From: Cetorhinus maximus
Lineage: Eukaryota
Assembly (NCBI RefSeq): GCF_964194155.1
Contig: NC_135894.1
Location: forward strand, 46,562,001 to 46,626,000
Direction: 5' to 3'
Length of the DNA: 64,000 nucleotides
In this document: piece by piece, positions 14,102 through 60,945 of the stretch
How positions within the stretch are numbered: position 1 is the first letter of the stretch
How the letters are laid out: every line of letters begins with the position of its first letter
Position numbers and translations under genes: made by a program
The notes under the pieces: model-generated
Database searches by the model: none
Told to the model about the DNA's origin: nothing
Seen by the model: the letters and a program-made list of their open reading frames with translations, nothing else

Positions 14102-14165
14102 ATGAGACAATTGTTCAGAAACATCATGATAAAAACAGTTGTCGTGTTCTTGCTGATTGTGACTG
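14102..14165 (+). CDS. Exon 1, signal peptide MRQLFRNIMIKTVVVFLLIVT(G)
   Basis: ATG with A at -3, hydrophobic core VVVFLLIV, consensus donor G|GTAAGT at 14166, phase 1 as is typical for Ig-superfamily leader exons. Alternative in-frame ATGs at 14054 and 14126. Confidence 0.75.
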
Positions 14166-17100
14166 GTAAGTCTGTCATTTTTACTGTTGAGGGATATTAT
14201 TCAAAGTGGCAAAGGACTCATTTAGTCCAAAGTGAAAAATTATTCAGTGAAACTAGTCAGAACAAAACATTTGAATTCAGGAACATCTCTTATACAGAAA
14301 CTAAGAAGATATGGTTTGCATTGCAAAGGCTTTTGTAAACATATGGGGCACCTCCAAAACACTGTCTTTGCAAACTACTTAGAAAGAGTGTTACAGTGTT
14401 GAGAAGCAGGTTTATATGGTTTCTTTAAATGGGGATTATTGTGTGTGGAGCAAGGGGTATGATTAAATGTAAATATCCCATAATAATATTAATATCATAA
14501 TCTGGGCCAAGTGGACCAACGTCTACTTGTCATGAGTACCTAAGCTCTAAGAAAAATTGTTTCAGAATTTGAAGGCTTGATTTATTTTGTAAATTTTGAT
14601 TACCCGGTAGCACAATGTGATCTGTGACTTACGCCGTAAATTACACCATTTTGTGACCCAGTCTTTCTGTTATGAATTCAATCCAAAATTTCCGGGAAAA
14701 GTAATTTGAATAAGCAGATCAATATTGGAATGACTTAAAGTAATGAATTCTGAATTTCAAATCCTTTCACGATACTGAAATTAATTGTTTGAACTATGTT
14801 GTTCTATGAACTATGAGCATTCAGTTGTTATATTCCATTTTCAGGAACATTCGAAATTACATATTTTTAATTATATATTTAGAAGATGGCATTCATCATT
14901 TAAGCTATCGAAGCAACCGGGGGTTAAATTGTACCTTCCTTCACCCATTTCTTGGGCAAGAAACAGAGGCTCAAATTTTGGCAGACTCATGTCCTGCCTC
15001 CACTCCAAGGACAGCAAAATTACATCTGATGCAATAATCAGGTATCCCTGAATGCCATTTAACAGGTATTAGTTTTTTTGAATATGCCAATGAGGGATCT
15101 AATGCCTATTTGAGGACTGCTCTTTGAAATTAGTTAGAAACTGAGTGGAGATTTTTCAGTTCCATCTCCCTCCAAACCAAGACTCATCATAAACACCTAC
15201 AGTACTACAATTCATTCTTTCTCAGAATCTCAAGATTGTGGAACTGCTTACCTTCCTCTATTTTCTCTTTCCAAGTTTACAAGCTTTGAAACCTCAAAAT
15301 TGGAGCTATCTGACTATTAAATAATATATTTTGTCTTCTCCCCAACTCTTTTAAATCTTGCTAGTATCCTGGATTACGATTCTGAGCTCATCAGCTAGAT
15401 TCCTTAATTTTAAAATATACCTAATTATCATGGTTATACATCAAACAAATGTTATGCAGTGTTAAGTGCAAATAAGCACTTGTGCATTCATATGGTCATA
15501 TATATATCTGTTTCATGTATGCATGTAGCATTTCCATTTAATGCATGTTGGGGTGTGTACTACTCTGTTTTATGTATGGTGCGTAGTCCATCACCCCCTA
15601 CTCCTCAACCCCCTCCCACTGCACCTTCCCATGCAACCGCAGAAGATGCAACATCTGCCCCTTTACTTCCCCTCTCCTCACCGTCCAAGGGCCCAAACAT
15701 TCATTTCAAGTGAAGCAGCATTTCACCTATACTTCCCTCAGCTTAGTCTATTGCATTCGTTGCTCCCAATGCGGTTTCCTCTACATTGGAGAGACCAAAC
15801 GCAGACTGGGTGACCGCTTTGCAGAACACCTTCGTTCTGTCCGCAAGCATTACCCAGACCTCCCTGTCGCTTGCCATTTCAACACTCCACCCTGATCTCA
15901 TGCCCACATGTCCGTCCTTGGCTTGCTGCAATGTTCCAGTGAAGCTCAACGCAAACTGGAGGAACGGCACCTCATCTTCCGACTCGGCATTTTACAGCCT
16001 TTCGGACTGAATATTGAGTTCAACAATTTTAGATCATGAACTCTCTCCTCCATCCCCACCCCCTTTCTGATTCTTCCCCCTCCTTTTTGTTTTTTCCAAT
16101 AATTTATTTAGATTTTTCTTTTCCCACCTATTTCCATTATTTTTAAATGTATTTCCAGCCATTGTTTTATCTCTACGTTTTAGCCTTTTTCGATTCCTTC
16201 ACCCCACCCCACCCCCACTAGGGCTATCTGTACCTTGCTTATCCTGCTTTCTACTCTTAATTAGCACATTCGTTTAGATAATATCAACACCTTCAACACC
16301 TCTTCTTTTGTCTGTGACATCTTTTGACTATCTCCACCTATCACTGGCCCTCTATCCAGCTCTCTTGTCCCAACTGCACCCACCCCCACCACCCCCCCCA
16401 CCACCCCCACCCCCTCCACCCCCCCCCCCCCCACCCAAAAAATAGCTTATATTTCACCCCTTTTCTATTTTTCCTTAGTTCTGTTGAAGAGTCATGCGGA
16501 CTCGAAATGTTAACTGTGCTCCCTTCCACAGATGCTGCCAGACCTGCTGAGTTTTTCCAGGTATTTTTGTTTTTGTTAAAGATGATACTAGGTTTGTTTT
16601 ATCCCATAATTCCATATTTTAATTGGTATTTAAACATTGCCAGTTTAAATGTATTTATAGTACAGGCGTATTTATGCCTTTTTCACATATGTATGGCTGT
16701 TTTCTGCATGCATAGATCTGTTTCATTCATACATGTAGGTCTGTACATGTTCATGCCCAAGTAATAGTCAATATTTCGGTGTAGTACTAAGAGAATGCTG
16801 TATTGTCTATATCTTTCAGATGAACTATTGAATGGAGGCCTTGTCTGAATATGCCAATATTTTGGGTGGACATTAAATATAAGAATATAATAACTGAAGG
16901 TATAGCCTCGCCTGCTGTCTATTAGGGGTAATGTGGTATTCTAGGAGGCTCTGACAAATGAGCCCTAAGCGAGGGCAATTCAAGGGGTCGGGCTTCCTCA
17001 CAAGAGTCCTGATTGAGCATGTAGCACCTTAAAAGCTCTTTGTAATAAAGTTTATCTGTTTCTTGTTGAAACCTGTCCGGTCCGCCAAGTCATTACATTT

Positions 17101-20100
17101 GGCAATGAGGATGTGATAGCTCTGATGCTGCACCTAGCCTTGTTAACATGAGTACGTCGAGTCTTAAGAAAAAGAAAAGACTACTCACCAGTTACGCCAG
17201 CCTTCGGCAGAATCGATCCTTACGATGTGACTATTGAAGACTGGAGCCAGTATGTAGAGCGCCTTGGTTTTTATTTCATAGCAAACGAAATTACCAAGAA
17301 GGAAAAGTGGAAAACCATCCTTTTGAGTGTATGTGGCAGTAAGACACACAATCTCATTCACAACCTGACAGCCCCGAGCATGCCCAACTCAAAGTCCTGT
17401 ATTGAATTAGTAGACCTCGTGAAAATGCACTTCCAGCCGAAGCCATCCGTAATAATGCAGCGTTTTAAACTTAATTGCAGAGTTAGGGCTCGGGGAGAGT
17501 CCATTGCAACCTATGTAGCGAATGTTAAGCAGTTGACAGAACACTGCAACTTTGAGGACATATTAAATGTTATGCTGCCAGACCAATTAGCTTGTGTCAT
17601 TCAGAACGATGCCATTCAGCACCGTTTACTCATCGAGGTCAACATCGCCTTTAAGCGCACCTTAGGAATCTCCCTCGCCATGGAAAGTGCTGTGAGAGAC
17701 TCGCAGGCTTTGTAAACATACAATATGGCGCTGTTCCTCATGTGGAGTGGGAACTTACCACCGGGCATGGCGTGAAAACCAGACCCACAACATCGAAGCG
17801 AGAGGCAATGTCCGTTGTTAGAAACGTGAAAGGCCGAGTAGAAACACTTCAGCAGTGACTCTAAAATTAAGTTGTTATAGATGTGGAGGTGACACAGACC
17901 AGACACCTGTAATAAATTACAGGAGGCAGAATGCCATTGCTGCCATAAGAAAGGTCACTTGGTAAGGCAATGCAGAGCAATATCAATACAGCCCATAAAG
18001 CAGCAAACCAACATGACTGAATTAAAGAATACAGCAGAACCTGAAGCTGCCGACACCGACATTTATTCCCTGTATAACGTAGCCGCTGTAAAAACTGCAC
18101 CTCTCACTGTGACAATCCAAGTTAATGAGAAGCCACTAATAATGGAGGTGGATACGGGTGCCTCAACTACAATGGTGAGAGAGCACACCTTCAAATACCT
18201 TAATGAAGGTAGACAGCCAATAAACCTGGAGCGCACAACCACTAAATTAAAGACATACACTGGAGAATCTATTCAGGTAAAGGGCATCGCCACAGTACCA
18301 GTGTCTTACAGGCAACAGACAGCCCAGCTTCCTGGGATAATAGTGAAAGGAGAAGGACCTAGTCTTCTGGCTCAACTGGTCTGAGATATTTCATCTGCAA
18401 ACAGGAGGAGTTCCTGAACTGCTAAGGAAATACAACATGGTATTTCAGGATGAATTAAGAAAGTTAACAGGCCTGCAGGCCAAGATATATGTGGATCTCA
18501 GGCAACACCACATTTCTTTAAGGCCTGACCTGTGCCTTATGCATTGAAGGAGAAGGTGGATGCAGAACTGTGCCAGTTAGAAAAGCTGGGCATCATCCAA
18601 CCTGTTCAAATCTCAGAAAGGGCAGCACCCATAGTTCCAGTGGTTAAACTTGACTAAACTATACGCATTTGTGGGCTATAAATTGACCATAAATTATGCA
18701 GCAAAACTAGATAAGTACCCCATTCCAAGGATAGATGACTTATATGCAAAGCTGGCTAGAGGCAAGTCCTACACAAAATAGGATATGAACCACGCCTACC
18801 AACAATTAGAACTGGATAAAAACAAAAAACTACTGCGGATTCTGCTGAAGGGTCGTGAGGACTCGAAACGTCAACTCTTTTCTTCTCCGCCGATGCTGCC
18901 AGACCTGCTGAGTTTTTCCAGATAATTCTGTTTTTGTATTAGAACTGGATAGCACATCAAGAGAATATGTGACTATCAACACACACGAGGATCTTTATCA
19001 TTACACTTGCCTACCATTTGGACTATCATCTGCATATGCAATCTTCCAGAGAACAATAGAGAGTCTTTTGCAAGGACTTCCCTGAGTGGTAGTATACCTA
19101 GAAGATATCCTGATCACAGGGTCCACTGAGACCGAACAGTTGGTCAACTTGGAGGAGGTGCTAAGAGGTTCATGGAAGCTGGTGTATGGTTAAAGAAGGA
19201 AAAATGCACATTTCAAGCACCAGAAGTTGCTTACCTGGATCTCAGGGTGGACGCCATGGGCTTGCATCCGGGAGATGCCAAAACATACACCAAGTCAACA
19301 CTTTTATTCAGAAATCTAACCAATTCAAAACACATCAGGTTTTTAAAAATATTAATTAGTTCTTACTATTTTAATAGATTTCCTCCCACCGTCCAACGAA
19401 GTGCTGGTTAGGTGGATTGGCTATGGTAAATTGCCCCTCAGTGAGTGTGTGTGGGTGTGTGCGTGCGCGCGTGCGCGTGAGAGTGTGTGCCCTGTGATGG
19501 ACTGGCATCCTGTCCTGGGCATACCCCGCCTAGCGCCCATTGCCCGTCAGGATAGGCTCCAACTCCCTGCCACCCTGAATTGGATAAAGCTGTTCTGGAA
19601 AAGTGAGTGAGTCTTAGAGTTCTTGAAATTTTTGCTTTTAATTTTAAAACATGAGGGCAATGAAGCTACGATACAAAATGATTGCTGTGACACAACCAGT
19701 AGAATTCAAGATTAATTCCATCTACAATCAGAGCAACTTTGCCACAAGCCAATAAGAGTTGCAATAAATTCAAATAGTGGCACACTGGGGTTCATCAGCA
19801 TCAAGTGCCATCTGTAACCATAGCAACTCACATTTGCCAACAGGCAGTGAGCTTTCTGTGGCATCAGTATCACAGACAAAGCAAATTGGTACCACACAGC
19901 TGACACAATGTAATAAGAACATGCTGGCTTTCAGTTTCTATACACATGCTGTCTATCACTAAGACAACCATAGAATCAAACACTGTACTTCTCTCCGTGA
20001 AACACAATGCTGTATACAGGGCCAAACTATAATAGTAAACGATAAGTTTATTTAAGTGTTCTCAGTAAAGCATTGTGAAGCTGAAATACATAATCTGCAG

Positions 20101-23100: not shown

Positions 23101-26100
23101 AGTCTCTTGCCACTGGAACCTTCTTATAATTTTATTCTGCATCTTCTCTAAAGCCTTCCAGAATTGGACAGCTACTCCAGTTTGGGCCAAACCAATATTT
23201 TAAGAAGGTTCATCATAATTTCTTTGCTGTTATTCTCTATGCACCTATTTATAAAGCCCAGGACCCCGTAACCATTTTCTCACCCTGGCCTGCCACATTC
23301 AATAATTTGCCTACATATAACCTGAGGTCTCTCTAGCATTGTACCCATTAGTTTTTATTGCCTCTCCTCTCGACTTTACCAGAATTGTATGGTAGAAACC
23401 CCTTTTAGGCAAATATACAAGTTTTCAGCAATGTTGCTACAACGGAGCAGAAGCAACTCTGAGGAAATTCACAGCCCTACCAGACAACAGTGATTATTTT
23501 TCAAGTGTACGTCTCTGGCTATGAAACACTGTATGACACCCTTCAATTCTTTCTGTTACATCAGTATTTACTGTAATTGTATCTGGGGTTATTATGATAA
23601 AGCCAATACAAAGTGAATCGATAATATCTGAATTCTCTTTCTTTTCTACCTAGGTGTCCAACCAAAGCTTACAACTAAAGGGAATGTAACCGTTGCAGAG
23701 GGCAATTCAGTTACCTTACAATGTGGCTTTTCTGATGAAGGTGGCCAGTTGGTATTAGTTGAATGGAATAAATCCAGAAACAGAAGAAAACTTGCTGTGT
23801 ACCATTCAAACAGTACACATCATTACGATCAGCGAATAACAACGGTAGTCAAAAATCAACATTCCACAATCACAATCAGAGAAGCTCTCAAATCTGACAA
23901 AGGCTGGTATTCCTGCATATTTCATACCTTTCCAAATGGAAAACAAGAGGAAAAAATGTACTTGGATGTCAAAGGTAAAGTCAGAATTTTGAAAAATTTC
24001 CTACATTTATAAACTACCTGAAAGATATGAACTATCAAAATAATAAAGCTTATAGGGTTTTTAAATGTGATGAGCAAGAAGTTGTATGACTGGTTATGTT
24101 TTAGATCAGTTAACATACATAAAAGATTTACAAAAACCCAATCTGCATAATTTGAGTTAATATTCAAATGAATTTAGCTTGCAGTCTTCTACTCCTAGCC
24201 TGCATATCCTACAAGATTGCAATTACTAACCATTAAAAGACAAAGGTACCCAGATTCTCAAATCTGTGTTTTCATTGGAGACAAAATGTTTCTCTGTGCA
24301 TATATGTGGTGTAATACTGAAAATAGAAGAGGATTGATTTTTTCTTGTGTGTTGGAGATGGGGGTTTCCAAATATAAAGAAACTCAGTTAGTCAAGTTTG
24401 ATATTCATATTTATATATTCGGGTCATTGCGGGAGTCTAGCAGTCTAGCAAGTAAAAACAAAGCCTGAAGCCATGATGTCTCTCAGAAAGAAGAGGATGC
24501 ATACCACTATGCTGCCTTTTGCCTGGGAGACAAGAATAAGGGGGCAGATTCTAGGAGAAGGTCCTACACAGGAGGCCATTCCCATAGCAGGTCTTCATGA
24601 AGCAATTTTCATACCTCAACTTCACCAAGGAACAATGTGAGAAGTGCATTCACTTCACCCAGGAGGCTGTCACTGAGCTATGTCACCTGCTGCGCAGTCA
24701 CAACTAGAAATCTAACCCAGGGTGTAAGCGGCATTGCTTTTGGCTGTCACCACAGCCCTTAATCTTTGTACCACTGGTCTGTTCCAGGCTCCAGCAGGTA
24801 GCAACCACAACAACTAGTTTTTATATAGCACCTTCAAAATAGGTTCAAAATAACCTAAAAAAGTCCCAAGTCCCTGCACAGGGCCACTATGAAACTAAAT
24901 ACGAAACAAATCTACTAAAGGGACGTTAGGGTAAATAACCAGAAGTTTGTTCAAAGAGGTGGATGTTAAGGAGTTTCTTAAAAGAGGAGAGAGGTGGAGA
25001 GGAGGGAAAGTTAAGGGAGGGAGTTCCAAAGCTTAGGGCCAAGACCGCTGAATGCACAGTGTTTGGTGGAGCAATTAAAATCAAGGATATTCAAGAGGCC
25101 AGGATTAGATGAGTGTATCTCAGAGGGTTGTGGGGCTGGAGATTACAGAGATAGGGAGGGGCAAGACCATGGAGTATTTGGAAAACCAGGATGAGAATCT
25201 TAAAATTGAGTTTGAAAATTGCTTGGCCAGCAGCCAGTTAGTTCACCGAGCACAGGGGTGGTGGGTGAACAGATTTTTGTGTAAGTTAGAACATCGGTAA
25301 CAAAGTTTGGGATGACCTCAGGTTTATGGAGGGTAGTATATGGGAGACCAGCCAGGAGTGCATTAAAATAGCTAAGTCTAGGCATAACAAAGGCATGGAC
25401 GAGGGTTTCAGTAGCAAATGAGCAGAGCAGGGCAATGTTACAGAGATAGAAATAAGCTGTCTTAGTGATGGCATGCATATGTGTTAGGAAGGTCATCTAG
25501 GTGTCAAAATGACAGCAGGGTGTGAGCAATCTGGTTCAGCCACATGCAGTTGCCAAGGAGAGGAATGGTGTTGGTGATGAGGGAGCAGAATTTGTGATGG
25601 GGACCAAAGCCATTGGCTTCAGTTTTCCCAATATTTAATCAGAGGAAAATTCTGTTCATCCAGTTATGGATGCTGAACAAGCAGTGTATTTGGAGTATGC
25701 CAAGGTTGAGAGAGGCAATGGTGAAGTAGAGCTCAGTATCATCCACACACATGTGGAAACAGACATGTTTTTGGATGAGTGAGGTCTCACCCAGCTGAAT
25801 GATGGTGGAGACACGTTGGAGGAGCATGGTGTAATCAACCATGTCATAGGGTACTGACAGGTTGAGAAGGAAGATGAGGGACAGTTTAACTTTTGGTACT
25901 GTGGCAGGGCCAGCAAACTGATTAGAGATATTCTGAGTTGGCTGGACACTGATTTGGGAGGTGACAACACATTCAAGGACTTTAGAGAGAAAGGGATGTT
26001 GGAGCTGAGGCAGGGAGAGAACATGAGGAAAGAAAACAGTTAACAAAATTGGCTAACGTGGGAACCAGGAGGGGAAGTTTGGTTGGCAGTAGTTTAGTGG

Positions 26101-50100: not shown

Positions 50101-53100
50101 ATGAGGTTATAGATTCTAGTTGAACACAATTCTGTTGATGATGATGACCCACAGTGGCTCTTGGATGCCCAGTTTTGAGTTGCTAGGTTTGTTCTGATTC
50201 TATCCTATTTAGCACAGTGATAGTGCCACAACCGCAGTGGCGAGTTTTCACGTCGCATCGTCCCAAACCCGCCACATTAGTTATGCATTCCCGGGAAATA
50301 CACCATTTTGATGGCAGGCTGGCTCTCATTCGCCCGCCATGCCATCACCTCACCGCTTCATCACACTGGGGGCCATATTTAAAGCCCAGACACGCACACT
50401 CATTTCAGTGCTTCCAGCCCACGACTACTGCAGAGAAGATGTCCATGAAAGGCAAAAAGACTGCAGCCCCCATGTCTAGTGACGCATAATTGGAACGGCT
50501 TTTGGACGCCGTGGAGGCCTGATGCGATGTCTTCTACCCTTGCTCTGGTCGCAGGATGGGCAGCTGGGTGACCACCCAGGCTTGGGAGGCAATGGCAGTG
50601 GTGATCAGTGCCAATGCTGCACAGAAGAGGTTGGCCATCCAATGCAAAGAGGATAAATGATCTCGTCCATGCAGTCAGGGTATGGCGACCATCTCATCAC
50701 TCTAAACTCACATGCTCAAGCTAATCACACATTCACTGGCATCTCACTCACTGCCAGCTCAATGGACATCACCACCCATTCTCACACACACATCCTTACA
50801 TCTCCATCTGGCCTCATCTCCTCTGGAGACTGCCTCCTCAGCCATCGTCATCTTGGCGCCACTTGCACAGATCAACATGTGTCTCCACACACACCCTGGG
50901 ATACCCTCCTTCCCCAGTACAGCCCTCGTCCTGCAGAATCTGCCCTTGCCTGAGGCCACTTCTCGCCCTTCTCCACGCAAGCCCTAGACCTGCAGCTATT
51001 GAAAAGCCAGCCACATATGACTGATCTGGTAGGCAGAGACCTGCCGTGAGCCCCCCCAAAAATGATGTGGTGCTGTCTGTGAAGCCTGGCACTGATGGCT
51101 ACAAGTGCTGACCAAAGAAAGGTAGGCAAAGAAACATTGAAGTCCCGAGCGAAGTGCAGCCCGCCAGGTGTACGTTACTTATGTTGTGAAACACATTGGC
51201 GTGTTTTCCTACCGATGTGGGCGGACGAACCAGAGGTGGAAGTGGGGTGTGGTGAACGATCCTAGCGTGCTGGCCTAATAATCATATGCAGATGTATTAC
51301 AATGAGGTTCCCTATATCCGATGGCAGGAAACACGGCCCACAATTGGAGGCTGAGGGGACGATCGCAACCTGGTTACACGCCGCCCTGAAACCAATTGCG
51401 CCATATTGTCCGCTCATGCCTCCGAACACGCCCAATGCTGCCGGACATGGAAAACCTCGGCCAAAGAAACAATGCATAAAATAAATTGGAGGCATTTAGG
51501 GTGGATGATGAACATAGAGGAAGGGCAGCACCCAGATTCAATAATGCATCACTGAAATTACTGCTGTTTACGGTCAGAAGGAGAAGGGACTTTTCTCCAA
51601 CACTGGAAGAAAGAAACCTATGACTATCACTAAGAAGGCTTGGTTTGAGGTAACTGAGTTGAGCAGCAGGAACCATAAGACCTTAAGACATAGGAGCAGA
51701 AGTAGGCCATTCGGTCGAAGGAGTCTTCTCCACCTTTCAATGAGAACATAGCCGATCTGATAATCTTCAACTCCACTTTCCTGCCTTTTCCCCATAGCCC
51801 TTTTTCCCTTACTGATTAAAAGTCTGTCTGTCTCAGCCTCGAATATACTTAATGACCCAGCGTCCACAGCCCTCTGCGGTAAAGAATTCCACAGATTGAC
51901 TACCCTCTGAGAGAAGAAATTCCTCCTCATCTCAGTTTTAAATGGGTGCCCCCTTACTCTGAGATATTGCCCTCTGGTCCTAGACTCTTCCACAAGGGGA
52001 AACAACCTCTCAGCATCTACCCTATCGAGCCCCCTAAGAATCTTATATGTTTCAATAAGTTCACCTCTCATTCTTCTAAACTCCAATGAGTACAGACCCA
52101 ATGCACTCAACCTCTCCTCGTAAGAAAATCCCTCCATCCCCGGGATCAATCAAGTGAACCTTCTCTGCACTACCTCCAATGCCAGTATATCTTTCCGTAG
52201 ATAAGGGGGCCAAGACTGTTCACAATATTGGAGGTGTGGTCTATAGTATAGTAACTATAGTTTTCCTTATTTTTAGGGAAGCGCGGGGAGGGTTCTGGAG
52301 AGAGGATAAGTAGGCTTACAAAGCAAAAGGATATGGCGGCATTGCAGGGCAGCTACTTAGGTAATGATTCCCAGAGTGTGACAGGAAGGGACAGAGGGTA
52401 CAAACATTAAAAAAACAGCAAATAGGATCAAAGGGGGGAAAAAAATGGTAAAAAGACAAAATTAATGGCTCTTTACTTAAATGTATGTAGTATTCGGAAC
52501 AAAATAAATGAATTAATGGCACAAATAGACATTAATGGGTATGATCTTATAGCCAATACAGAGACATGGTTACAAGGAGATCATAGCTGAGAACTAAATA
52601 TTCAGGGGCATGGGACTTTTCGAAAGGACAGGCAGGAAAGAAAGGGTGGTGGGGTAGCTTTGTTAGTACGAGATGGAATAAGTACGATAGCAAGGAATGA
52701 TCTTGGATCAGAAGATGTGGAATCCATATGGGTAGAGATAAGAAATAACAAGGGGAAAAAGATACTGGTAGGAGCATTCTATGGGCCCCCTAACAGTAGC
52801 TATGCTGTAGGACAGAGAATAAATCAGGAGATAATGAGGGCGTGTAAAAAAGGCAGTACATTAATCAGGGGTGACTTTAATCTTCATGTAGATTGGGAAA
52901 ATCAAATTGGCAGAGGTAGCCTTGAGCAAGAATTCATAGAGTGTAATCAAGACTGTTTCCTAGAACAATATGTTGTAGATCCAACCAGGGATCAGGCTAT
53001 TTTGGGAATGTGTAATGAAGCATGTTTAATAAATGATCTCAGAGTAAAAGATCCCCTAGGAAACAGCAATCATAACATAGTGGAATTTAGCATTCAGTTT

Positions 53101-56100
53101 GAGGGTGAGAAACTTAGTTTGGAAACAACTGTGCTAAACTTAAATAAGCGTAATTATAAAGGAATGAGGACAGAGTTGGCTGGAGTGGACTGGGAAATGA
53201 GTTTAGTAGAAAAGACGGTTGATAAACATTGGCAGACATTTAAGAAAATAGTTCATGACTCAAACAAAGATATACCCCAGTGAGGAAGAAGGATTGTAGG
53301 AAGGGGATAAACCAACCATGGTTAACCAAGGAAGTTAAGGTTAGTATCAAAGTGAAAGAAAAAACATACAGCATGGCAAAGATTAGTGGTAAGCCAGAGG
53401 ATTGGGAAAGTTTTAAAAACCAACAAAAGATGACCAAAAATATATAAAGAGGAAGAAAATAAACTTTGAGGGTAAATTAGCAAGTAATATAAAAATGGAA
53501 AGTAAGAGCTTCTTTAAGTATATAAAAAGGAAGATAGAGGCCAAAGTCATTACAGGCCCCTTAGAGAATGAAGCTAGGGAAATAATAATGGGGAATCAGG
53601 AAATGGCAGAGGAGTTGAATAAACACTTTGCATCCGTCTTCATGGTAGAAGACACTAATAGCATACCAAAAAGCATTGCAGGACATCCACGAGGGTGATT
53701 CCACAAAGGACATATTCTTCTGAGGGTGCATAGTTTCAGGATTTAGAGCCATGCACCAGTACAGACAGTGATGGGAGGGAGACTTACGGAGAGTCTGCTT
53801 CAGGGGTGGGAGCCTGGGGAGCCCAATCCTCTCCAATCTCTGCTCAGTGGGGCACAGATTCTGAATCTTGGAGCTATCATTGTGAAAGAGAATGCTAGAG
53901 GTGCATCACCAACTTAGATATGACACACACACACTTCACATTAGGAGGAGTTCAACTTGATCACTAGTACATTGGTGGCATGGAGAATTACGAACATTGT
54001 AACAATATCTGCCATGGAAAGAGTGGCCATCTCCACAGAGAATCAAGTAAGGCTCTCAACTGAGTTCATGAAGATCATGACTTCAGCCTGCAGGCGGTAT
54101 CTAACTCCTTAAATAAGGTGACATGACAACTTCAGCCTGTAGAAGCATTGCTGTTCTGAGAGATCAAGATAAGCTGAGTCCCTGTGACTTAGATAGCGTC
54201 TCCTGCGACCTAAACCCCTGTTCTTTGCAAATCACACCTCTGCACCTCCCTCTCATACACCTAGTGCTAATCCCACTACAGCATGTTGTCACTGCATATT
54301 ATCACACCCACATTATTCAATATGTTTGAATGACACCAATTGTGAAATCGAAATAAAATTTGTGTTGACTGAATATAAAATTTTAATTTTGTTAAGTATT
54401 TTGATTGGGCAAATAGAGAAATTCTATTTCTACTGCTTTGGGAGTCAGTATTGAGGGGCTCATCAATTGAAAATTGTCTCTGAAAGAGTGAAAAGGGAAG
54501 TTAGAAGAAATATCTTTGCATATAAAATGTTTTGTTACTGGGAGTAATTGAGGCAGATACTTTTGTATCATTTTTAGGGTGGAATGGTTAAACATTTGAA
54601 GCAAAGGGTGGTTCAGGTTATGGAAGGAGAGCAGGGCAATGGAATTAATTTGAAGTTGCACCATCAAAGAAGCAACGCAGACATGATGGGCAAAATAACT
54701 TGCTTCTGTGCTGTAAACTTCCATGGTTCTATGGTTTGAAGTTGCATTGACCTTATGCACAATACATTCAATAAAGCTAAAAAATATACGGGATGAATTT
54801 GACAGCAACTCCCCCACTAGTCTGTTGTAATTTCACCAAAAGAGCTGTGGGAACTCCAAAAAACAGCAGAAACAGGAAAAATTTACCCCCCTCCCCACCC
54901 CGCCCGCCCCTGTAATCTAACAAAAAGCTCAGCTTTTGGAAGATATTTTTAAATGAATATTAGTTAACTCAATATAAGTAATTCCAAAATACATTGATTT
55001 TGACAGCAAGGTCAAATCATTTTTGAAGACATTTTTATTTTAGTAGCCATTATTTTTACTGCTACGAAAGTTTCTAAGATAACTACCTACTTGCGCAAAT
55101 GAAAGGCTCCAATTCATCCTCAGGGTGACTAGCTTATCCACTCCCTAGTACCTGCTCAGATACTTTCACTTGACGGCAATTAGACAGTGTTAGTCAAGAT
55201 GCGACGCTTTCCCATCAGAGACTAAGGACAGAGCTGCCATCGGCCAGGAGTTTTCCCTCGTCGGGCGGGAGCAGTCGGGAAGTGGTCCACGATCAGGGCT
55301 GGTCCGTGGTTTCCCACTGGCGGGCCAATTAAGGCCTGTCACATGAGCAAGGACATGTTCTTAATGAAGTGTTAAATTTATAGTTTATTTTTAATTGCTG
55401 TTGGAAACCTCATCCCACCCATGGATGAGGTTTCCTAAAAAGTATAAAGGCCACTTGGCCTTTTCACCTGCCTACCAACCGTAAGGAAGATATCATTTAA
55501 TTGGGACTTTAATGGCTTTAATAGGCCTTTTAATTCCGGAGGGTGCGCTGCTGACCCCCGCGCGCGCCTGGCAACCAAAATACCGCACACAATTTTATGC
55601 TCGAATGGATCATGCGTGCGCCTGCCCGCTCAGCGAAAAATCCTGCCCATGGAGTCCAGAAGTCATGAAAATATGTTTGAAGATAACATAACTATGTGTA
55701 GGCTCTGAGGTCAATCTGTTAGTATGTATAACAACTAACAAGTGCAACTGTTGAGTCTGTAGCTGTCCTTTGTGGCAACATCACAGAAGCTTGATAATAA
55801 TGGGAAGATAGGAAAGGTGCAGGGGGTTTTGGTAGTGGGTGATGAACCCAATGAACAGATCTTTCTTTTTAAAGGCCACACCAAGATTTCTATTAAATGA
55901 CAGCATGTTACACAGGATTTACACCAATGTCTGCTCCAATAGATGTATCAATAAGCTGACCAAGGAAACCCTCACATACGGAACACTCCTGACGATTTGT
56001 GCACAATTTTCTTCTGAATGACATAACAGCAGCACAATTCAACCCCATGTGCAAATTCTGGTTTTGGCTTGTTTTGTTAGAATAATGCCAAACAGCCACC

Positions 56101-59100
56101 TTACTGAAGACCTTTAATTAGAAATATGTTGATATGTTTGGATTTGCTAAATCAGATGCTGCTTCTTGACGTTGGCACCACACCTTCAGTAGTGAATTGC
56201 AAGAAAACAGCAATAAGTTTATTACTATTAATAAATCTTACTCTCCTTTGTTAATTTTGTTAAATCCCGATCTTCACTTTGAAATTTACTACATTATTAA
56301 CCTCCATTTAAAATTTTGATTTAATATCACTCAACAATCTGACACAATCACAAAGAAGCTACTCAAATGTCAGGTGTTTTTATACTGCATTACTATTTAA
56401 TGAAAATAACTGCTTAAAGCAAAGTATAAATAAGATACTTTACATACTTCCTTGTTCCATGTTGTTTCACAATCTTCTGTTTTCATTGTTAATTTTCCAT
56501 TAACTTTTATTGTAGCTGACAAAACCTAGGTTCACCACACCATTACTTACCACCTTTGAAAGAAGTTACCAACTATTACTTCTTACCATTGCTGACCTTC
56601 TGGTGTCTGTCATCCACTTTGCAGATATGATGCATGTTAAAAAATCTAATTGCTTCATCAGGTCAATGTTTGTCTCAATTTTATCCATAAAAACTAACAT
56701 TCATATTGTAGGACAAGCTGTTATGTACTTGCCACTAGTAATCTTATCAGATCTCCATTAAGGTAGCTTGGTAATTAGCAATAAGTCAGAGTAAAAATTA
56801 CTCTGCTTACAACTAGGGACAGCTTGAACACTTTGGATGCATTGAATGAACTGCCATTGATAGGTTGCCATCTACATAATGAAGCCTCATGTCAGTGTCA
56901 TGAGAAGTTGTGAAAGAGAGGATAAGCACTGGTTTGATTCTATGAAACAAACAGTGGCTGGAAGATTAGAGGATAGATGAAATTTGTAGACCCTCTAGGG
57001 GAGGGTTGTGTGGCACCAGGCACCGGGAGCTCTCAACCATGGCAATTGTAGAACTAAATAAACAAGAAATGATGATGATTGCCAATGACAGACACATAAT
57101 ACAGTCACCAGCAATAAAAGATTCATTGGCCAAACAGGTTAAATAAGCTGTCAACCTGCAGCATAGAACCTACATATACAATGTAAACAGTCTAACCAGA
57201 GCAGTTTGGGTAAAACATACATACCCTCAATGATGGTTCAGCTCAGACCCTGGTAAAAAAAAAGAGTAATATATAAGTGCAAAATTATATTTTGAGCAGC
57301 TCTATCTGATTATACTCTGAGATTTGTGCTTTCTCCTCATCCCCTGACGTTCACTCTTACCCATGACCCAGCTTCAGTCCTTGATTGATTCTGTGGTCTC
57401 CTTCCTCCATCAACTTTATGCCATTCAGGGGCTCTTGACAAGATATACAGGAAGGGAATGAGAAGTAAGAATCCTTTCTCATAGTTTTTTTGGTATGTGT
57501 GTGAGAAATGCAATCTGATCGTATGGTAAATGGTGAGGTCTGTAGCGCTGGGTGGCACTGATCTTTTCAAGCCAATGTCATACTAACTTTGGTCATAGCA
57601 CCCACTTTATTAAGCATGCAGTCATGCATATTTCCAAAACAAAAACTCAGCAGGTCTGGCAGCATCGGTGGAGAAGAAACTTCCAAACTTTTCCTGTTTC
57701 CTATATGATTTACTTCTGAGGAAGATCCTAAATGATACGAAGTGTCATGAAGTATTCACACTTCAGAAGCAACAAGCAGAAGAAATTGCACAGGGCCCCA
57801 AGAGTAGGAGCTTACTTGAAGTGCTACTGAACAGGAAAGGTATGCTATTCTGTGATTCTATCAAAGAGGTACTCTTCACAAACACTAGATGCTCAAAGCA
57901 CTTTACAGCCAATGAAGTACTTTTCTCTTGAAGTGCTGTAAATATAGGAAACACACCAATCAATTTGCGCACATGGTGGGATTGGCAGGAATGCAGCATG
58001 CACCAGTGAGGTGGTAGCCTTCACAGGACATGCTGATGTGCCCAGACATGAGGAGCTGAACAGCCACCTTCAATGGTGTGCTATCCTGTGATTCTGTCAA
58101 AGAGTAGGTTGGCACCAGGGCGAGTTTGACTTCAGTGACGAGCTGGTGGCAAGAACAAAGGGTTTGGATTTTTGGCCATAAGTCGGGAATCAACTTATAC
58201 TCAAGAATAATGAAAAATTAACGGTTAGTTTTGGCCTAAAGTCAGAGGTCGACTTTTACACAAGATCAACCATTGCTTGAGTATATAGGGTAGTACTAAA
58301 GGTGATAGATTTGTCCTAAGTGACACTTTCAATTCAATGCATATGTTACATGCAAGATTTGTATAGCTGTAAATAGATGAATATATGTAACATAATTTGA
58401 TTTAACTTTGACAATTTGCTTTTGCATGTTCCAGCACAGAATTAGAATGTCACATCATAGTGATACAAATGAATACAGCATTGTCTTGATTTTCAGAAGT
58501 TATATCAGAAAATAACTATTTATATCTAAACTTAAGCTTCATTAATTGCATGAATTAACAATGGTGTATTATACTGTTATGTAAACTTGGAATTGCTTAA
58601 TTTGATAGCTATTTTCAATGTAAAGAACCATGATTTATCTCTTTCTAGATGCAGTAAGCAACTCCTTCAATCTAACTGCATATGTTAGCATTGGTGTGGT
58701 TCTAGCAGTGCTAGCTATTGGAATCATTCTTATATTGCTACGTTATGTTCATGTAAGTAACAAGAATTTACTATATTTAAACATAAATATACACTTGATT
58801 ATTAAGGCTACACTAAGTAATTTAATAAACATAATATAATAAATATACACTTCCTTTAACTTGTTGCCCTCAAATAATTTTCACACTTGTCCAATTAATT
58901 TGTAGTTGTTGAATTGAATTATGGTTATTCACACATGTTTACTTGTACACTCAATTCTTCTCATGCTGGTCTAATAGTAAGTTAATTATTTAAAAAGAAC
59001 AAACCCTTAAAATTAGACTACCATTTGGAGATTGAAAAGCCTAGAATAGGCATGCACCCCTTTCAATGTAATGAACTGTAATAAACAACAACAGCCATTT

Positions 59101-60841
59101 ATGTAGCACATTTAGCATAATGAAATGTTTGAAGGAGCATTATAAAACAATGCCAAGCCACATAAGGAGATATTGGGTCAGTTGGCCAAAAGCTTGATCA
59201 AATAGATAGGTTTTAAGGAAGCAAGTTAGAGAGGTGGTTAGGGAGAGAATTCCAGAGCTTGTGGCCTAGGCCTCTGAAGGCACAGCTACCAATGGTGGAG
59301 TACTTTATAATCAGGAATGCACAGGAGGCCAGAATTAGAGGAGCAGAGGGTTATGGGGCTGGAGGAGATTACAGAGATAGGGATGGACAAGGCCATGGAG
59401 GGATTTGAAAACAAGGCTGTGAATTTTAAAGTCAAGATATCGCTTGATCGGGAACGAATGTAGGTCGGCAAGCAAGGGATGATAGAGGAATTGTAGTAGC
59501 TGCAAGTTAAAACACAAATAGCAGGGTTTTGGAGGACCTCGAGTTTATGGAGGGTAGAATGTTGCAGACCAGCCTGGAGTGCTTTGGAATAATTGAGCCT
59601 AGGGGTTATAAAGGCAGGAATGAGGGTTGCAGCAGCAGATGAGCTGAGACAGGGGCGAAGTTTAGAGGCATTACCGAGGTGGAAATAAGCAGTCATATTG
59701 TTAGCACGAATATGAAGTTGAAAGCTCATCTTGAGATCAAATGTGACACCGAAGTTGTGAACAGACTGGCTTACTCTTAGACTATTGCCAAGGAGAGGGT
59801 TGGAGTCAATAGTCGGGGATCGAAGTTTTGAGCGGAGATTGAAAAAAATGGCTTCGATCTTCCCAATATTTAATTGGAGGAAATTTCTGCTCATCCAATA
59901 CTGAATGTTGGATATGCAGTCTGATAATTTAGCAACAGTGGAGGAGTTGAAAGAAGTGGTGGTGAGGTAGGGCTAGGTGTCAGGAGCATGCACGTGAAAA
60001 CTAACAGTGCCTTTAGATGATTTCACCGAAGATCAGAACATAGATGAAAATTGGAGGGGACCAAGGATTAATCTTTGGGAATACCAGAGATAACAGTGCG
60101 GGAACAAGAAGAGGCTTTGCGACTGATTCTGTGGCTGCGATTAAATAAGAATGGAACCATGTGAGGGCAATCCCACCCAGCTAAATAACAGTGGCAAAGC
60201 ATTGGAGGAGAATGGGGTGGTCAACTGTGTCAAAGGCTGCAGGCAGATTGAGAAGGAAGGAAAGTTTACCTTTGTCACGGTCACATAGGATGTCATTTTT
60301 GACATTGATGAGAGTCATTTCAGTACTGCAGCAGGGGCTACTTTTCAATGCAAGTTACACTATCACATTACACTTTACTGGAGGTGGGATGACATAGGAA
60401 CGTAGAATAAAAGAGTAGGCTATTCAGCTCCTTGAGCCTTTTCAGATATTCAATTAGATCATGAGAAAAGCATATAGATCTCATTTTTTGAACTCTTCAA
60501 TTGATCCAGCATCCACAGCCTTTTGAGGGAAGAGAGTTCTAGATTTCTACCACCCTTTGTGTGTTCCTAATGTTCCTTTGTAGAAAGGTGACTTCTTATA
60601 TCAGAAAACCTTGATCAACGTATCAGTTCATGTGTTCCTTGTCTGAACTTCCTTTCATGTTTAAATTGCTTTGCAGCAGAGGAAGTCTAGAGTCAACATA
60701 CCAAACCAAATCAATATAATCCTGAAAAACACATCTGACAGAGATAATGAGGACAATGAACAGAAGCTGGACAGGCCAATGGTAACCAACAGTGATTGCG
60801 AAGACATAGGTGATAATTATATGAACATCTCATTCGAGTGA
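14102..60841 (+). CDS. Spliced gene join(14102..14165,23654..23974,58649..58752,60677..60841): TIGIT-like single-IgV nectin/PVR-family immunoreceptor, 217 aa
   Basis: All three introns are GT..AG with matching phases (1,1,0); 64+321+104+165=654 nt open to TGA. Domain order is signal peptide-IgV-TM-tail with a tyrosine motif. Orthology to TIGIT (vs CD226/CD96/PVRIG/CD200-like) is inferred from architecture and motifs, not from a search. Confidence 0.8.
15585..16577 (+). mobile_element. Penelope-like retroelement 3' portion (GIY-YIG endonuclease + terminal repeat region)
   Basis: LVYCIRCSQCGFLYIGETKRRLGDRFAEHL...PVACHFN is the Penelope GIY-YIG signature. Tail gactcgaaa…cagatgctgccagacctgctgag. 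Confidence 0.9.
16895..19270 (+). mobile_element. Ty3/Gypsy LTR retrotransposon, 3'-truncated (5' LTR, PBS, gag, protease, partial RT)
   Basis: LTR with AATAAA ending ..CA at 17097; PBS-like TGGCAATGAGG at 17100; gag EDWSQYVERLGFYFIAN..ILLSVCG; Cys/His knuckles ~17870-17975; protease MEVDTGAS; RT YLED motif ~19094. LTR start approximate. Confidence 0.9.
18819..18937 (+). mobile_element. 119-bp Penelope terminal fragment inserted into the Gypsy RT
   Basis: Flanked by a perfect 14-bp duplication ATTAGAACTGGATA (18805-18818, 18938-18951); homologous to 16480-16577. Confidence 0.85.
19380..19612 (+). mobile_element. V-SINE-type SINE, 5'-truncated
   Basis: ttcctcccac…gttaggtggattggctatggtaaattgcccc V-domain, central (TG/CG)n tract, gccctgtgatggactggc…ggataggctcc tail, (gtga)n end. 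Confidence 0.7.
20865..21280 (-). mobile_element. DeuSINE/SacSINE1-like SINE
   Basis: Reverse-complement similarity to the copy at 41665-42110 (gctgt…gtgggac/tcttgctgt, ttcccacattacaacagtg). Confidence 0.6.
21686..22298. mobile_element. Harbinger-type MITE, complete
   Basis: Ends GGGCAGAATTTT / AAAACTCAGGCC, 3-bp TSD TCT (21683-21685, 22299-22301). Confidence 0.8.
22680..23370 (-). mobile_element. CR1 LINE 3' fragment, degenerate
   Basis: Colinear with the CR1 copy at 5460-6360. Confidence 0.7.
23654..23974 (+). CDS. Exon 2, IgV domain (GVQPKLTTKGNVTVAEGNSVTLQC...VEWNK...TITIREALKSDKGWYSCIFHTFPNGKQEEKMYLDVK)
   Basis: Polypyrimidine tract + TAG acceptor (23651-23653), 321-nt open phase 1-1 exon, B-strand Cys (VTLQC), C-strand Trp, D-x-G-x-Y-x-C, TFPxG motif, donor AG|GTAAAG at 23975. 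Confidence 0.93.
24810..26350 (-). mobile_element. L2 LINE fragment (continues ~28040-28420)
   Basis: KTAYFYLCNIA…ETLVHAFVMPRLSYFNALLAGLP and SCSLDPIPTKLL are L2 ORF2 motifs. Confidence 0.85.
26350..28040 (-). mobile_element. CR1 LINE with internal deletions (ORF1 esterase piece, endonuclease, 3' tail) nested in L2
   Basis: (aacataag)n tail at 26351; IIMGDFNLHINW…LDLVL…LGSSDHN endonuclease; RLCCLPGARV…VVMVHVGTGDIG ORF1 esterase motif. Confidence 0.85.
29885..30700 (-). mobile_element. CR1/L2-group LINE (family 2) 3' end
   Basis: IYKSQVRIVMEYSPLAWMSAAPTTLKKIDTVQDKATRLIG with an A-rich tail at 29885. Confidence 0.85.
31344..31628. mobile_element. Harbinger-type MITE, truncated
   Basis: Starts GGGCAGAATTTT, colinear with the 21686 copy; right half lost. 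Confidence 0.7.
34188..34521 (-). mobile_element. tRNA-derived SINE with family-2 LINE tail
   Basis: Minus-strand head GGGGAGGTGATG…, B-box GGTTCGAGTCC (~34435-34447), 3' tail matching the LINE tail at 46270-46335. Confidence 0.75.
35029..35860 (+). mobile_element. Penelope terminal fragment split by a MITE (35029-35066 and 35802-35860)
   Basis: Rejoined sequence …ggactccaaacgttaactct|gttctctctccacagatgctgccagagctgctgag matches 16480-16577. Confidence 0.75.
35067..35801. mobile_element. Harbinger-type MITE, complete, 735 bp
   Basis: Perfect 12-bp TIR GGGCAGAATTTT / AAAATTCTGCCC, TSD TCT (35064-35066, 35802-35804), CpG-rich (young). Confidence 0.92.
37057..38704 (+). pseudogene. Harbinger Myb/SANT-like DNA-binding protein gene (3 exons, disrupted)
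   Basis: PRFNEGSLERLLDAMEAYREVLYP…AWEAEAVVASAN…KRTATQCHKRMNDL; donor at 37302, exon 3 acceptor before 37734; +1 frameshift in a C-run, mutated exon 2 splice sites, in-frame stop ~37952. Confidence 0.8.
39480..40675 (-). pseudogene. Harbinger DDE transposase (HARBI1-like), disrupted
   Basis: LPVAVKVTAVL…GISQS, FPQVQGVIDCTH, KGFHSLNIQLV, FPGSVHDA, VEQTIGMLKMRFRCLD, IVVVCCTLYNL; the GDxGY motif is deleted and frameshifts are present. Confidence 0.9.
41665..42110 (+). mobile_element. DeuSINE/SacSINE1-like SINE, near full length
   Basis: Deu-domain-like gcagcattgtc…tgaggccc…tcccatggcactatttgaa…gctgtttgtgggatct, and an L2-type tail (…atataaataaac). Confidence 0.7.
42512..42556. repeat. Perfect 21-bp inverted repeat with a 3-nt loop
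   Basis: CGCTGTTGATGATGCTAAACA-aca-TGTTTAGCATCATCAACAGCG. Confidence 0.95.
43108..43610 (-). mobile_element. RTE-clade LINE 3' fragment
   Basis: LKGRNYKTVLTPALLCSAETWA…EMQMLRCMCGVTKKDKIR is the RTE RT C-terminal motif; (GAA)n tail. Confidence 0.8.
43865..44550 (+). pseudogene. Degenerate Harbinger Myb/SANT gene remnant
   Basis: LEALV…WEQVARKV…RTWQQCHKKSNNL motif and a downstream acceptor ctcttacag. Confidence 0.6.
45696..46345 (+). mobile_element. CR1/L2-group LINE (family 2) 3' end
   Basis: Reverse complement of 29885-30550; ends in gaatgaatt+A tail. Confidence 0.85.
46350..50230 (-). mobile_element. Long family-2 LINE copy (tail 46350-46400, body 48202-50230) interrupted by the Gypsy element
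   Basis: Rejoined …ggtgagctgccttct|taaaccctgcagtcc matches the other copies; RT motifs (GVPQDSVL, IYKAQIKTVMEYSPLAW). Confidence 0.85.
46401..48201 (-). mobile_element. Compact, internally deleted Gypsy element with both LTRs (1801 bp)
   Basis: LTRs 46401-46692 and 47912-48201 (TG…CA); PBS TGGCGATGAGG (47899-47909, -); PPT at 46693-46704; 5-bp TSD CTTCT (46396-46400, 48202-48206); gag start PQLGRIEPFDQTTDDWSHYIE…LLLTCGSKTYALIRSL. Confidence 0.92.
50232..51462. mobile_element. Harbinger deletion derivative (Myb exon 1 + right end)
   Basis: MSMKGKKTAAP…LERLLDAVEA homologous to 37057-37301; right end GGAAAACCTCGGCC; left TIR missing. Confidence 0.7.
51674..52275 (-). mobile_element. CR1 LINE 3' fragment
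   Basis: MIPGMEGFSYEERLSALGLYSLEFRRMRGELIETYKILRGLDRVD…FFSQRVVNLWNSLP. Confidence 0.9.
52280..53670 (+). mobile_element. CR1 LINE endonuclease/linker fragment
   Basis: VESIWVEIRN…YGPPNS…GDFNLHVDW…PLGNSNHNIVEF and MAEELNKHFASVF. Confidence 0.9.
55242..55648. mobile_element. Harbinger-type MITE, internally deleted
   Basis: Ends GGCCAGGAGTTTT / AAAATCCTGCCC, internal aaacctcatcc…ggatgaggttt hairpin, flanks ATC/ATG. Confidence 0.7.
58180..58293. mobile_element. Tc1/mariner-pogo-type terminal remnant
   Basis: Repeated (g)tcgact-ta-tac-c motifs ending GAGTATATAGGGTA, resembling …GAGTATATACGG|TA ends. Confidence 0.4.
58649..58752 (+). CDS. Exon 3, short stalk + transmembrane helix (DAVSNSFNLTAYVSIGVVLAVLAIGIILILLRYVH)
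   Basis: ctctttctAG acceptor, ~21-residue uncharged hydrophobic stretch followed by Arg, donor GTAAGT at 58753; phase 1 in, phase 0 out. Confidence 0.85.
59085..60335 (-). mobile_element. L2 LINE 3' portion in intron 3
   Basis: MSRNFLQLNIGKIEAIFF…HNFGVTFD…AYFHLGN…LIPAFITPRLNYSKALQAGL; AAFDTVDH motif at ~60215-60240. Confidence 0.88.
60390..60565 (-). mobile_element. Degenerate CR1 3' tail, ~110 bp upstream of exon 4
   Basis: cataggaac…gagtaggctattcagc…gcatccacagcc…gagttctagatt, similar to 26351-26600. Confidence 0.55.
60677..60841 (+). CDS. Exon 4, cytoplasmic tail QRKSRVNIPNQ...EDIGDNYMNISFE*
   Basis: tgctttgCAG acceptor; phase 0 gives a basic stop-transfer segment (QRKSR) and 54 open codons ending in an acidic stretch plus YMNI and TGA (60839-60841). 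Below the ORF-track threshold; read directly from sequence. Confidence 0.8.
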   Translation, partial: QRKSRVNIPNQINIILKNTSDRDNEDNEQKLDRPMVTNSDCEDIGDNYMNISFE

Positions 60842-60939: not shown

Positions 60940-60945
60940 AATAAA
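60940..60945 (+). terminator. Candidate polyadenylation signal AATAAA
   Basis: First AATAAA ~100 nt after the stop; another lies at 61237-61242. Usage unverified. Confidence 0.4.

Follow-up and report, generated by a model that had tools for sequence, protein, structure and literature searches.

The window analysed here, a stretch of 64,000 nucleotides on a 106.6-Mb contig (C16) of the 3.99-Gb genome of Cetorhinus maximus, holds a four-exon gene (gene B) that is in all probability the shark orthologue of TIGIT, and a paralogue upstream of the window (gene A) carries a nearly identical ligand-binding IgV exon together with an unrelated tail. The assignment to TIGIT follows from the tree of the IgV domain, the ZBTB20-GAP43 synteny, the homology of the cytoplasmic tail and the presence of a separate CD226 gene. 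In the full explanation, to which we assign a probability of roughly 0.7, gene B encodes a nectin-binding, likely inhibitory lymphocyte receptor with a ligand-identical, differently signalling twin. Since the gene is already named in databases its existence is by itself modest news, and the interest lies mainly in the history of the tail and in the gene-converted pair.

All introns of gene B begin with GT and end with AG (9,488, 34,674 and 1,924 bp; phases 1, 1 and 0), and the four plus-strand exons join in one open frame encoding a signal peptide, an IgV domain, a transmembrane (TM) helix and a cytoplasmic tail, 217 aa in all (Table 1). This is the protein that a sequence-only reading of the window had assembled, and its further observations also hold: the IgV domain contains the motif YSCIFHTFPNG (beginning at 23908) and the gene is spread over repeats, at least 53% of the window aligning elsewhere within the 664 kb examined. 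Exon 2 is recognized as a Pfam V-set domain (43.6 bits) and a white-shark RefSeq model (P0001) has the same layout and the same length of 217 aa, which together argue that the arrangement did not arise by chance. The introns additionally hold decayed transposon pieces (e.g. 15587-15892, 17152-18381, 36999-40410 and 52591-53280) with GIY-YIG, gag/protease-like, Myb/SANT and LINE endonuclease fragments, of which we take the Myb/SANT fragment to be Harbinger-like.

Table 1. Gene B, its paralogue and related loci (positions without a contig name count from the first letter of the window)
Feature	Position	Strand	Remarks
Gene B exon 1, coding part (signal peptide, phase-1 donor)	14102-14165	+	22 aa identical with white-shark model P0001; contig depth in 4/4 runs
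Gene B exon 2 (single IgV, Cys45-Cys109)	23654-23974	+	X1, X2 and X10 contigs begin/end at exon borders
Gene B Thr-to-Arg codon AGA, abolishing N-x-T sequon	23785-23787	+	sequon in 17/17 database chondrichthyan proteins and in the paralogue
Gene B T-F-P key of PVR/nectin family, F-G loop	23926-23934	+	aligns with human TIGIT T-Y-P in PDB match
Gene B exon 3 (short stalk, uncharged TM helix, phase-0 donor)	58649-58752	+	X1, X2 and X3 contigs span border to border
Gene B exon 4, coding part (cytoplasmic tail, stop)	60677-60841	+	NAGNAG acceptor, 60677 used
Gene B DNYMNI, ITT-like tyrosine motif	60812-60829	+	homologous to bony-vertebrate TIGIT DYFNV; no ITIM tyrosine after it
Gene B candidate poly(A) signal, first AATAAA past stop	60940-60945	+	related-species contigs continue beyond AATAAA
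Gene A (paralogue outside the window; 7 exons, 228 aa, intact)	C16:46,447,987-46,499,726	+	ends 76 kb before gene B start
CD200-like V exon	C16:45,750,255-45,750,581	-	0.83 Mb upstream of gene B; F-G loop T-F-R, not T-F-P
Likely shark CD226 (two V exons 6.4 kb apart)	C4:23,129,320-23,136,141	-	

Splicing was followed in contigs of presumed RNA runs, which come from two related shark species and two studies and whose labels give no tissue. The exon 3-exon 4 joint (58752 to 60677, GT..AG) is present in contigs of three of the four runs (two studies) and sets the product at 217 aa: at the NAGNAG site (60677-60679) acceptor 60680 would yield 216 aa and acceptor 60677 yields 217 aa, a difference of one Gln, and the upstream site is the one used in the related-species contigs and in the white-shark model. 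Exons 2, 3 and 4 occupy 64-385, 384-489 and 490-637 of a 638-nt contig (X1), and in a contig of 544 nt (X2) exon 2 lies directly ahead of exon 3; both were matched between alignments of different exons by length and depth, the exon 2-exon 3 joint spanning 34.7 kb. In these two contigs the IgV runs straight into the TM, a V-domain HMM finds exon 2 alone within the 64-kb window, and no Ig-family match was obtained in introns 1 and 2 (Pfam; all 68 plus-strand ORFs of at least 75 aa), so that the single-IgV layout stands without any extra Ig exon. Linkage of exon 1 is read from a fit of letters and depth rather than from a row of the joint itself (86 letters before exon 2 in the X2 contig, at depth 9.97, predict 2.49, and 2.49 was observed). 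Contigs of run X10, which contains every sampled word and is labelled as the likely species of the window, show no differences across exon 2 and give depth at exon 1, and aligned on exons 1-2, not on exons 3-4. The 367 unplaced letters of X10 equal the summed length of exon 3 and of exon 4 as far as the first AATAAA (104+165+98), and the gap proves nothing about an alternative end.

The IgV domain of gene B finds TIGIT as its best PDB match (42.6 bits vs 40.4 for CD226), as does a shark-only IgV profile (56.7 bits vs 52.4). In a tree of 55 IgV rows, 13 shark and 17 bony-vertebrate TIGIT rows fall on one side of a branch supported at 98/99, apart from the CD226, nectin and CD200-like rows, and the shark-TIGIT branch is recovered at 97/98 in a tree of 25 rows. 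The predicted grouping with TIGIT is thus obtained, on an alignment of 107 columns that includes no named CD96 or PVRIG row. The AU test does not reject a forced grouping of the shark rows with CD226 D1 (p 0.159), hence the IgV tree alone is not decisive for orthology; a grouping with the CD200-like rows is barely rejected (p 0.048). An AlphaFold model of the white-shark orthologue ranks TIGIT first (E 5.5e-10, with nectin-1 at 2.2e-9), a result that does not discriminate and that is biased by a wolverine TIGIT in the input alignment. In layout gene B agrees with TIGIT, having one extracellular IgV, a single TM and a short tail, and its single V exon departs from the two IgV domains of CD226. 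Four exons are found in human TIGIT and also in receptors of the CD28/CTLA4 type; the latter identity was rejected, there being no such PDB match, as was PVRIG, for which the Pfam Ig_PVRIG score (16.6 bits) lies below the cut-off of 31.5. Of the TIGIT/PVRIG type initially proposed, tree, synteny and tail support a TIGIT-type single-IgV receptor in the shark rather than one of the PVRIG, CD226 or CD200 type.

ZBTB20 lies on the minus strand of C16 outside the window (46,708,396-46,719,705), tail-to-tail with gene B and with its stop 85.6 kb past that of gene B, and GAP43 follows at 47.82 Mb, 1.2 Mb beyond ZBTB20. Gene B thus adjoins ZBTB20 as TIGIT does; the accessible text of PMC3261728 places human TIGIT and ZBTB20 in one 580-kb segment. 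The expected synteny holds on this side; a motif scan did not find DRD3, the other human neighbour of TIGIT, within 400 kb upstream. From the 363 non-repeat candidate ORFs upstream, a selection of 66 was covered by the Pfam scan, no Rfam match to MIR568 was obtained in the 90 kb downstream, and the TGT-family gene of C16 is 17 Mb from gene B. Elsewhere in the genome, apart from the likely CD226 on contig C4, V exons of nectin-3 (C7), nectin-1-like (C2) and nectin-2/PVR-like (C34) type with an intact lock are present on other contigs. The CD200-like V exon on C16 has OX-2 as its best match, by a hair over nectin-3. About 0.24 Mb upstream of gene B, on the plus strand, a V-set exon (C16:46,322,589-46,323,071) and a C2-set exon (46,349,046-46,349,381) form a gene with a weak PDB match, to nectin-3 alone, that could be CD200R- or CD96-like. 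A weak V-domain HMM match at about C16:46,173,571-46,173,957 on the plus strand (E 0.0014; no Pfam match at 1e-4) is possibly a further Ig exon of this cluster.

The cytoplasmic tail provides the second line of homology to TIGIT. An ITT-like tyrosine is present in all 14 shark and ray B-type tails, in each of which an acidic residue or Asn is followed by Y-aromatic/hydrophobic-x-(V/I/T), and it aligns with the DYFNV of bony vertebrates (devil ray DYFNVVIRSSL vs wolverine DYFNVLSYRSL). When scored with an HMM built from 16 bony TIGIT tails, 12 of the 14 B-type tails beat all 20 of their own shuffles, against none of six A-type tails. The window copy reads YMNI and so has the Y-x-N of the TIGIT ITT-like motif; Asn at +2 (Grb2-type) is found in 5/14 shark and ray B tails, the window copy included, and in 20/21 bony-vertebrate rows, while Y-x-x-hydrophobic is found in 13/14 B tails, with Thr in the remaining one. 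In humans this motif recruits Grb2/SHIP1, according to the accessible text of PMC12402281 and bioRxiv 10.1101/2025.05.08.652881. The ITIM tyrosine, at +6 from the ITT tyrosine, is absent from all 14 shark and ray tails and from all five named ray-finned fish TIGIT-type rows, and the ITIM therefore does not define the TIGIT orthologue group. A +6 tyrosine occurs in axolotl, two frogs, a turtle and one unnamed row, and it completes Y-x-x-L in eight rows alone (four named mammals and four unnamed mammal-like rows). On these alignments the simplest reading would be that the ITT-like motif came first and the ITIM later. The distribution bears on which tail motif of TIGIT matters, the ITT-like tyrosine running from sharks to mammals and the full ITIM appearing in mammal-type rows alone, and shark tails offer natural ITT-only variants for testing. 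A second conserved motif, juxtamembrane, reads R-(V/I)-x-(I/L)-P-N-Q-I-N-(I/V) in shark B-type tails and (R/Q)-N-P-V-H-(V/I) in fish TIGIT.

Gene B and the chondrichthyan rows retain the T(F/Y)P key on the ligand face, with S-F-P in one chimaera model. The key and the AX6G lock are motifs of the PVR/nectin family (PMC10486284, accessible part). The Ala of the lock is present and the Gly absent in the window copy, and Gly is found in 0/20 chondrichthyan IgV rows. The human V-T-Q, an instance of the (V/I)(S/T)Q motif of the PVR/nectin-binding family, aligns with L-V-L in gene B, and the Gln is absent in 19/19 elasmobranch rows. With both the lock Gly and the V-T-Q Gln missing, the ligand face is unlike that of all solved TIGIT complexes. 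The N-x-T sequon after the C strand, constant in the chondrichthyan database rows, is lost in the window copy (Table 1). The labels "checkpoint" and "nectin-binding" of the sequence-only reading are thus predictions, the ITIM tyrosine and the lock Gly both being absent. The IgV of gene B would likely bind a nectin-family ligand, and for the combination of a nectin ligand with a net inhibitory role, which leans on analogy with human TIGIT, we consider the odds slightly favorable.

The IgV exon of gene A lies 121 kb upstream of the IgV exon of gene B on the same strand, outside the stretch open to the sequence-only reading, which therefore missed this most unusual feature of the locus. Gene A has its own leader, a stalk exon, an uncharged TM and two YENV motifs, and its leader, TM and tail are unrelated to those of gene B. 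In contrast the two IgV exons are 95.6% identical in DNA (14 differences in 318 coding bases, nine amino-acid changes). Outside the exon identity is 85% over the 40 intron bp that directly precede it, 57-69% in the 100-400 bp flanks and 53-56% in the leader and TM exons, where random pairs give 52%; a gene-conversion tract probably covers about 23614-23974. Within each of the three species in which both types occur IgV identity between A and B is 92, 97 and 94%, and lamniform vs horn shark gives 69-74%. The post-IgV regions and tails part A from B at 100/99, but the IgV does not. It clusters by lineage, lamniform A with B at 98/98, carpet-shark A with B at 99/99 (taken from different species) and horn-shark A with B at 93/88, and the white-shark pair groups at 97/88 apart from the species of the window. 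A single A clade for the IgV is rejected (p-AU 5e-6; 9e-52 without the chimaera row). The sorting of the IgV by lineage and of the tails by gene indicates that conversion took place more than once, and recurrent gene conversion of recent date, restricted to the exon that binds the ligand, is very likely.

A-type models are available from white shark, horn shark, two bamboo sharks and a chimaera, five species against 13 for the B-type. A region search for A-type tails returned two white-shark models alone and is too insensitive to infer absence elsewhere. The second YENV of the A-type is preceded by Ser at -2 in three of the four rows that carry it, and S-x-Y-x-x-V fits the ITIM consensus. Among A-type isoforms, P0002 of white shark lacks the TM exon, P0020 of horn shark most of the IgV and P0025 of chimaera the stalk, and a soluble IgV form of the A-type may exist, as judged from these models. 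CD300A/C and CEACAM are reported as paired receptors whose members gene conversion keeps similar. The shark genes resemble such pairs in that the ligand-binding exon is homogenized between neighboring paralogues, and lack the charged TM residue usual in an activating member, none being present in the TM of gene A or gene B. Siglec-11 forms with Siglec-16 a pair of paralogues made alike by gene conversion repeatedly in separate lineages (PMC5701461, accessible part), and as in the sharks a near-identical ligand-binding exon is joined to different signalling parts. The shark pair differs in its uncharged TMs and looks far older, the A-type tail being present in a chimaera.

Each functional step for gene B is inferred by analogy with human TIGIT, for which the steps are described in PMC12402281 and bioRxiv 10.1101/2025.05.08.652881. 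The protein would be displayed on the lymphocyte surface, where its IgV would engage the D1 domain of a nectin-type ligand through the key. The single tail tyrosine, once phosphorylated, would recruit an SH2 adaptor, which in copies with Y-x-N, the window copy among them, would be Grb2 followed by SHIP1. Through this tyrosine and through competition with CD226 for ligand the receptor would likely dampen activation. Gene A, probably held ligand-identical by conversion, would send a different signal through its two Y-E-N-V sites.

Two alternatives concern what the genes are. Gene B might not be TIGIT but a paralogue of CD226-, CD200- or nectin-like kind with a single domain, as suggested by RefSeq, which names the white-shark orthologue "CD226 antigen-like" and one skate orthologue "nectin-1-like", by the small PDB score gap to CD226 and the unrejected grouping with CD226 D1, and by the CD200-like V exon and the V+C2 gene upstream on the same contig. 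The separate CD226 on C4, the 98/99 branch with TIGIT, the ZBTB20-GAP43 synteny and the homologous tail largely refute this reading, and we give it very little weight. That the two IgV exons are so alike could also stem from recent duplication, or from an artefact of assembly, instead of conversion between old paralogues. This is contradicted, and made highly improbable, by near-random identity in the distant flanks, leader, TM and tail, by the conservation of A-type and B-type tails each across shark orders, with the A-type in chimaera as well, and by the single-copy status of the one gene-specific exon examined per gene; independent recent exon duplications in each lineage are a slight residual possibility.

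With gene B taken as TIGIT, the further alternatives concern what it does. A changed ligand in cartilaginous fishes, either an IgSF protein outside the nectins or a protein on the surface of microbes, would account for the loss of the lock Gly and the V-T-Q Gln and for the constant sequon after the C strand (17/17 database rows), yet the T(F/Y)P key is retained and the nectin-1-like, nectin-3 and nectin-2/PVR-like V domains of the genome, with their intact lock, could take it; we regard this possibility as rather improbable. Somewhat more plausible, though still unlikely, is that gene B is a weakly signalling decoy, an endocytic receptor or a co-stimulator, with inhibition exerted by gene A. 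Its tail has no ITIM tyrosine and conserves Y-x-x-hydrophobic (13/14) where Y-x-N is kept in only 5/14, gene A has two YENV motifs with the Ser-preceded, ITIM-like second one, the accessible text of PMC12402281 assigns an ITT-like motif to CD226 too, and homogenization of the IgV is typical of opposing paired receptors (PMC5701461, accessible part). Against such a role, neither TM has the charged residue for coupling to DAP12 or FcR-gamma, ray-finned fish TIGITs are likewise ITT-only without an A-type partner among their matches, and in mice either TIGIT motif alone is reported to be inhibitory (PMC12402281, accessible part). With a chance short of even, the two genes may be an ancient TIGIT pair predating the shark-chimaera split, held to one IgV by conversion and sending opposite signals from two tails without adaptor-coupled TMs, in which the ITT-only tail is ancestral and the ITIM a late mammalian addition. 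The converted twin suggests lasting pressure that holds both receptors to a shared ligand, a pattern known from cases in which inhibitory receptors are exploited by pathogens.

Compared with bony-vertebrate TIGIT, gene B shares the single IgV, the T(F/Y)P key, the uncharged TM, the ZBTB20 neighbor, the position in the tree and the C-terminal acidic-Y-(F/M)-N-(V/I) ITT-like motif. It differs from human TIGIT in lacking the ITIM tyrosine, the AX6G Gly and the V-T-Q Gln, and from bony-vertebrate TIGIT generally in the only partial conservation of Y-x-N among sharks and in having a tandem IgV-sharing paralogue, no such paralogue being seen among the bony-vertebrate matches. With CD226 (DNAM-1) it has in common a PVR-family IgV with the key and an ITT-like tail tyrosine without an ITIM, but CD226 has two Ig domains and its own orthologue on C4.

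Of the 22 proteins found by a profile search, 21 belong to 16 chondrichthyan species and the remaining one, from wolverine, has a TIGIT tail. The 21 chondrichthyan homologues are named TIGIT-like (13), CD226-like (2), nectin-1-like (1) or uncharacterized (5), and the receptor is consequently not hidden, as had been supposed, NCBI/RefSeq already naming 13 of the 21 TIGIT-like. The "TIGIT-like" shark and ray models of RefSeq/UniRef are the same gene (P0001 is 92% identical in the IgV and 93% after it), under mixed automatic names that do not separate A from B. A wider search, in which 30 of 150 listed proteins were looked up by name, brought TIGIT-type proteins from bichir, sturgeon, bowfin, tarpon, a mormyrid, axolotl, frogs, a turtle and mammals, and genes carrying the name TIGIT are on record for bowfin, sturgeon, frogs, axolotl and turtle. 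Tree, synteny and tail support the suggestion that this receptor type is present in both branches of jawed vertebrates. TIGIT, accompanied in this genome by CD226 and nectins, is thereby moved to the jawed-vertebrate ancestor. A 2026 survey, in its section 8 and Table S2, instead lists CD96/CD226/TIGIT under Amniota (PMC13262535, accessible part). The accessible part of PMC7286890 does not treat the origin of TIGIT and the accessible supplements of PMC11372145 contain no TIGIT; in a search of openly accessible papers, no analysis of shark TIGIT, of its ITIM-less tail or of the converted pair was found.

On a further contig (C34), a cluster of nectin-like V exons lies at 8.73-8.80 Mb and at about 10.06 Mb, two of them 95% identical and on opposite strands. 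Several tyrosine motifs are present in the tails of relatives from cow shark and horn shark (P0036, P0140), and for this reason some genes of the cluster may encode inhibitory receptors of PVRIG-like type and not adhesion nectins.
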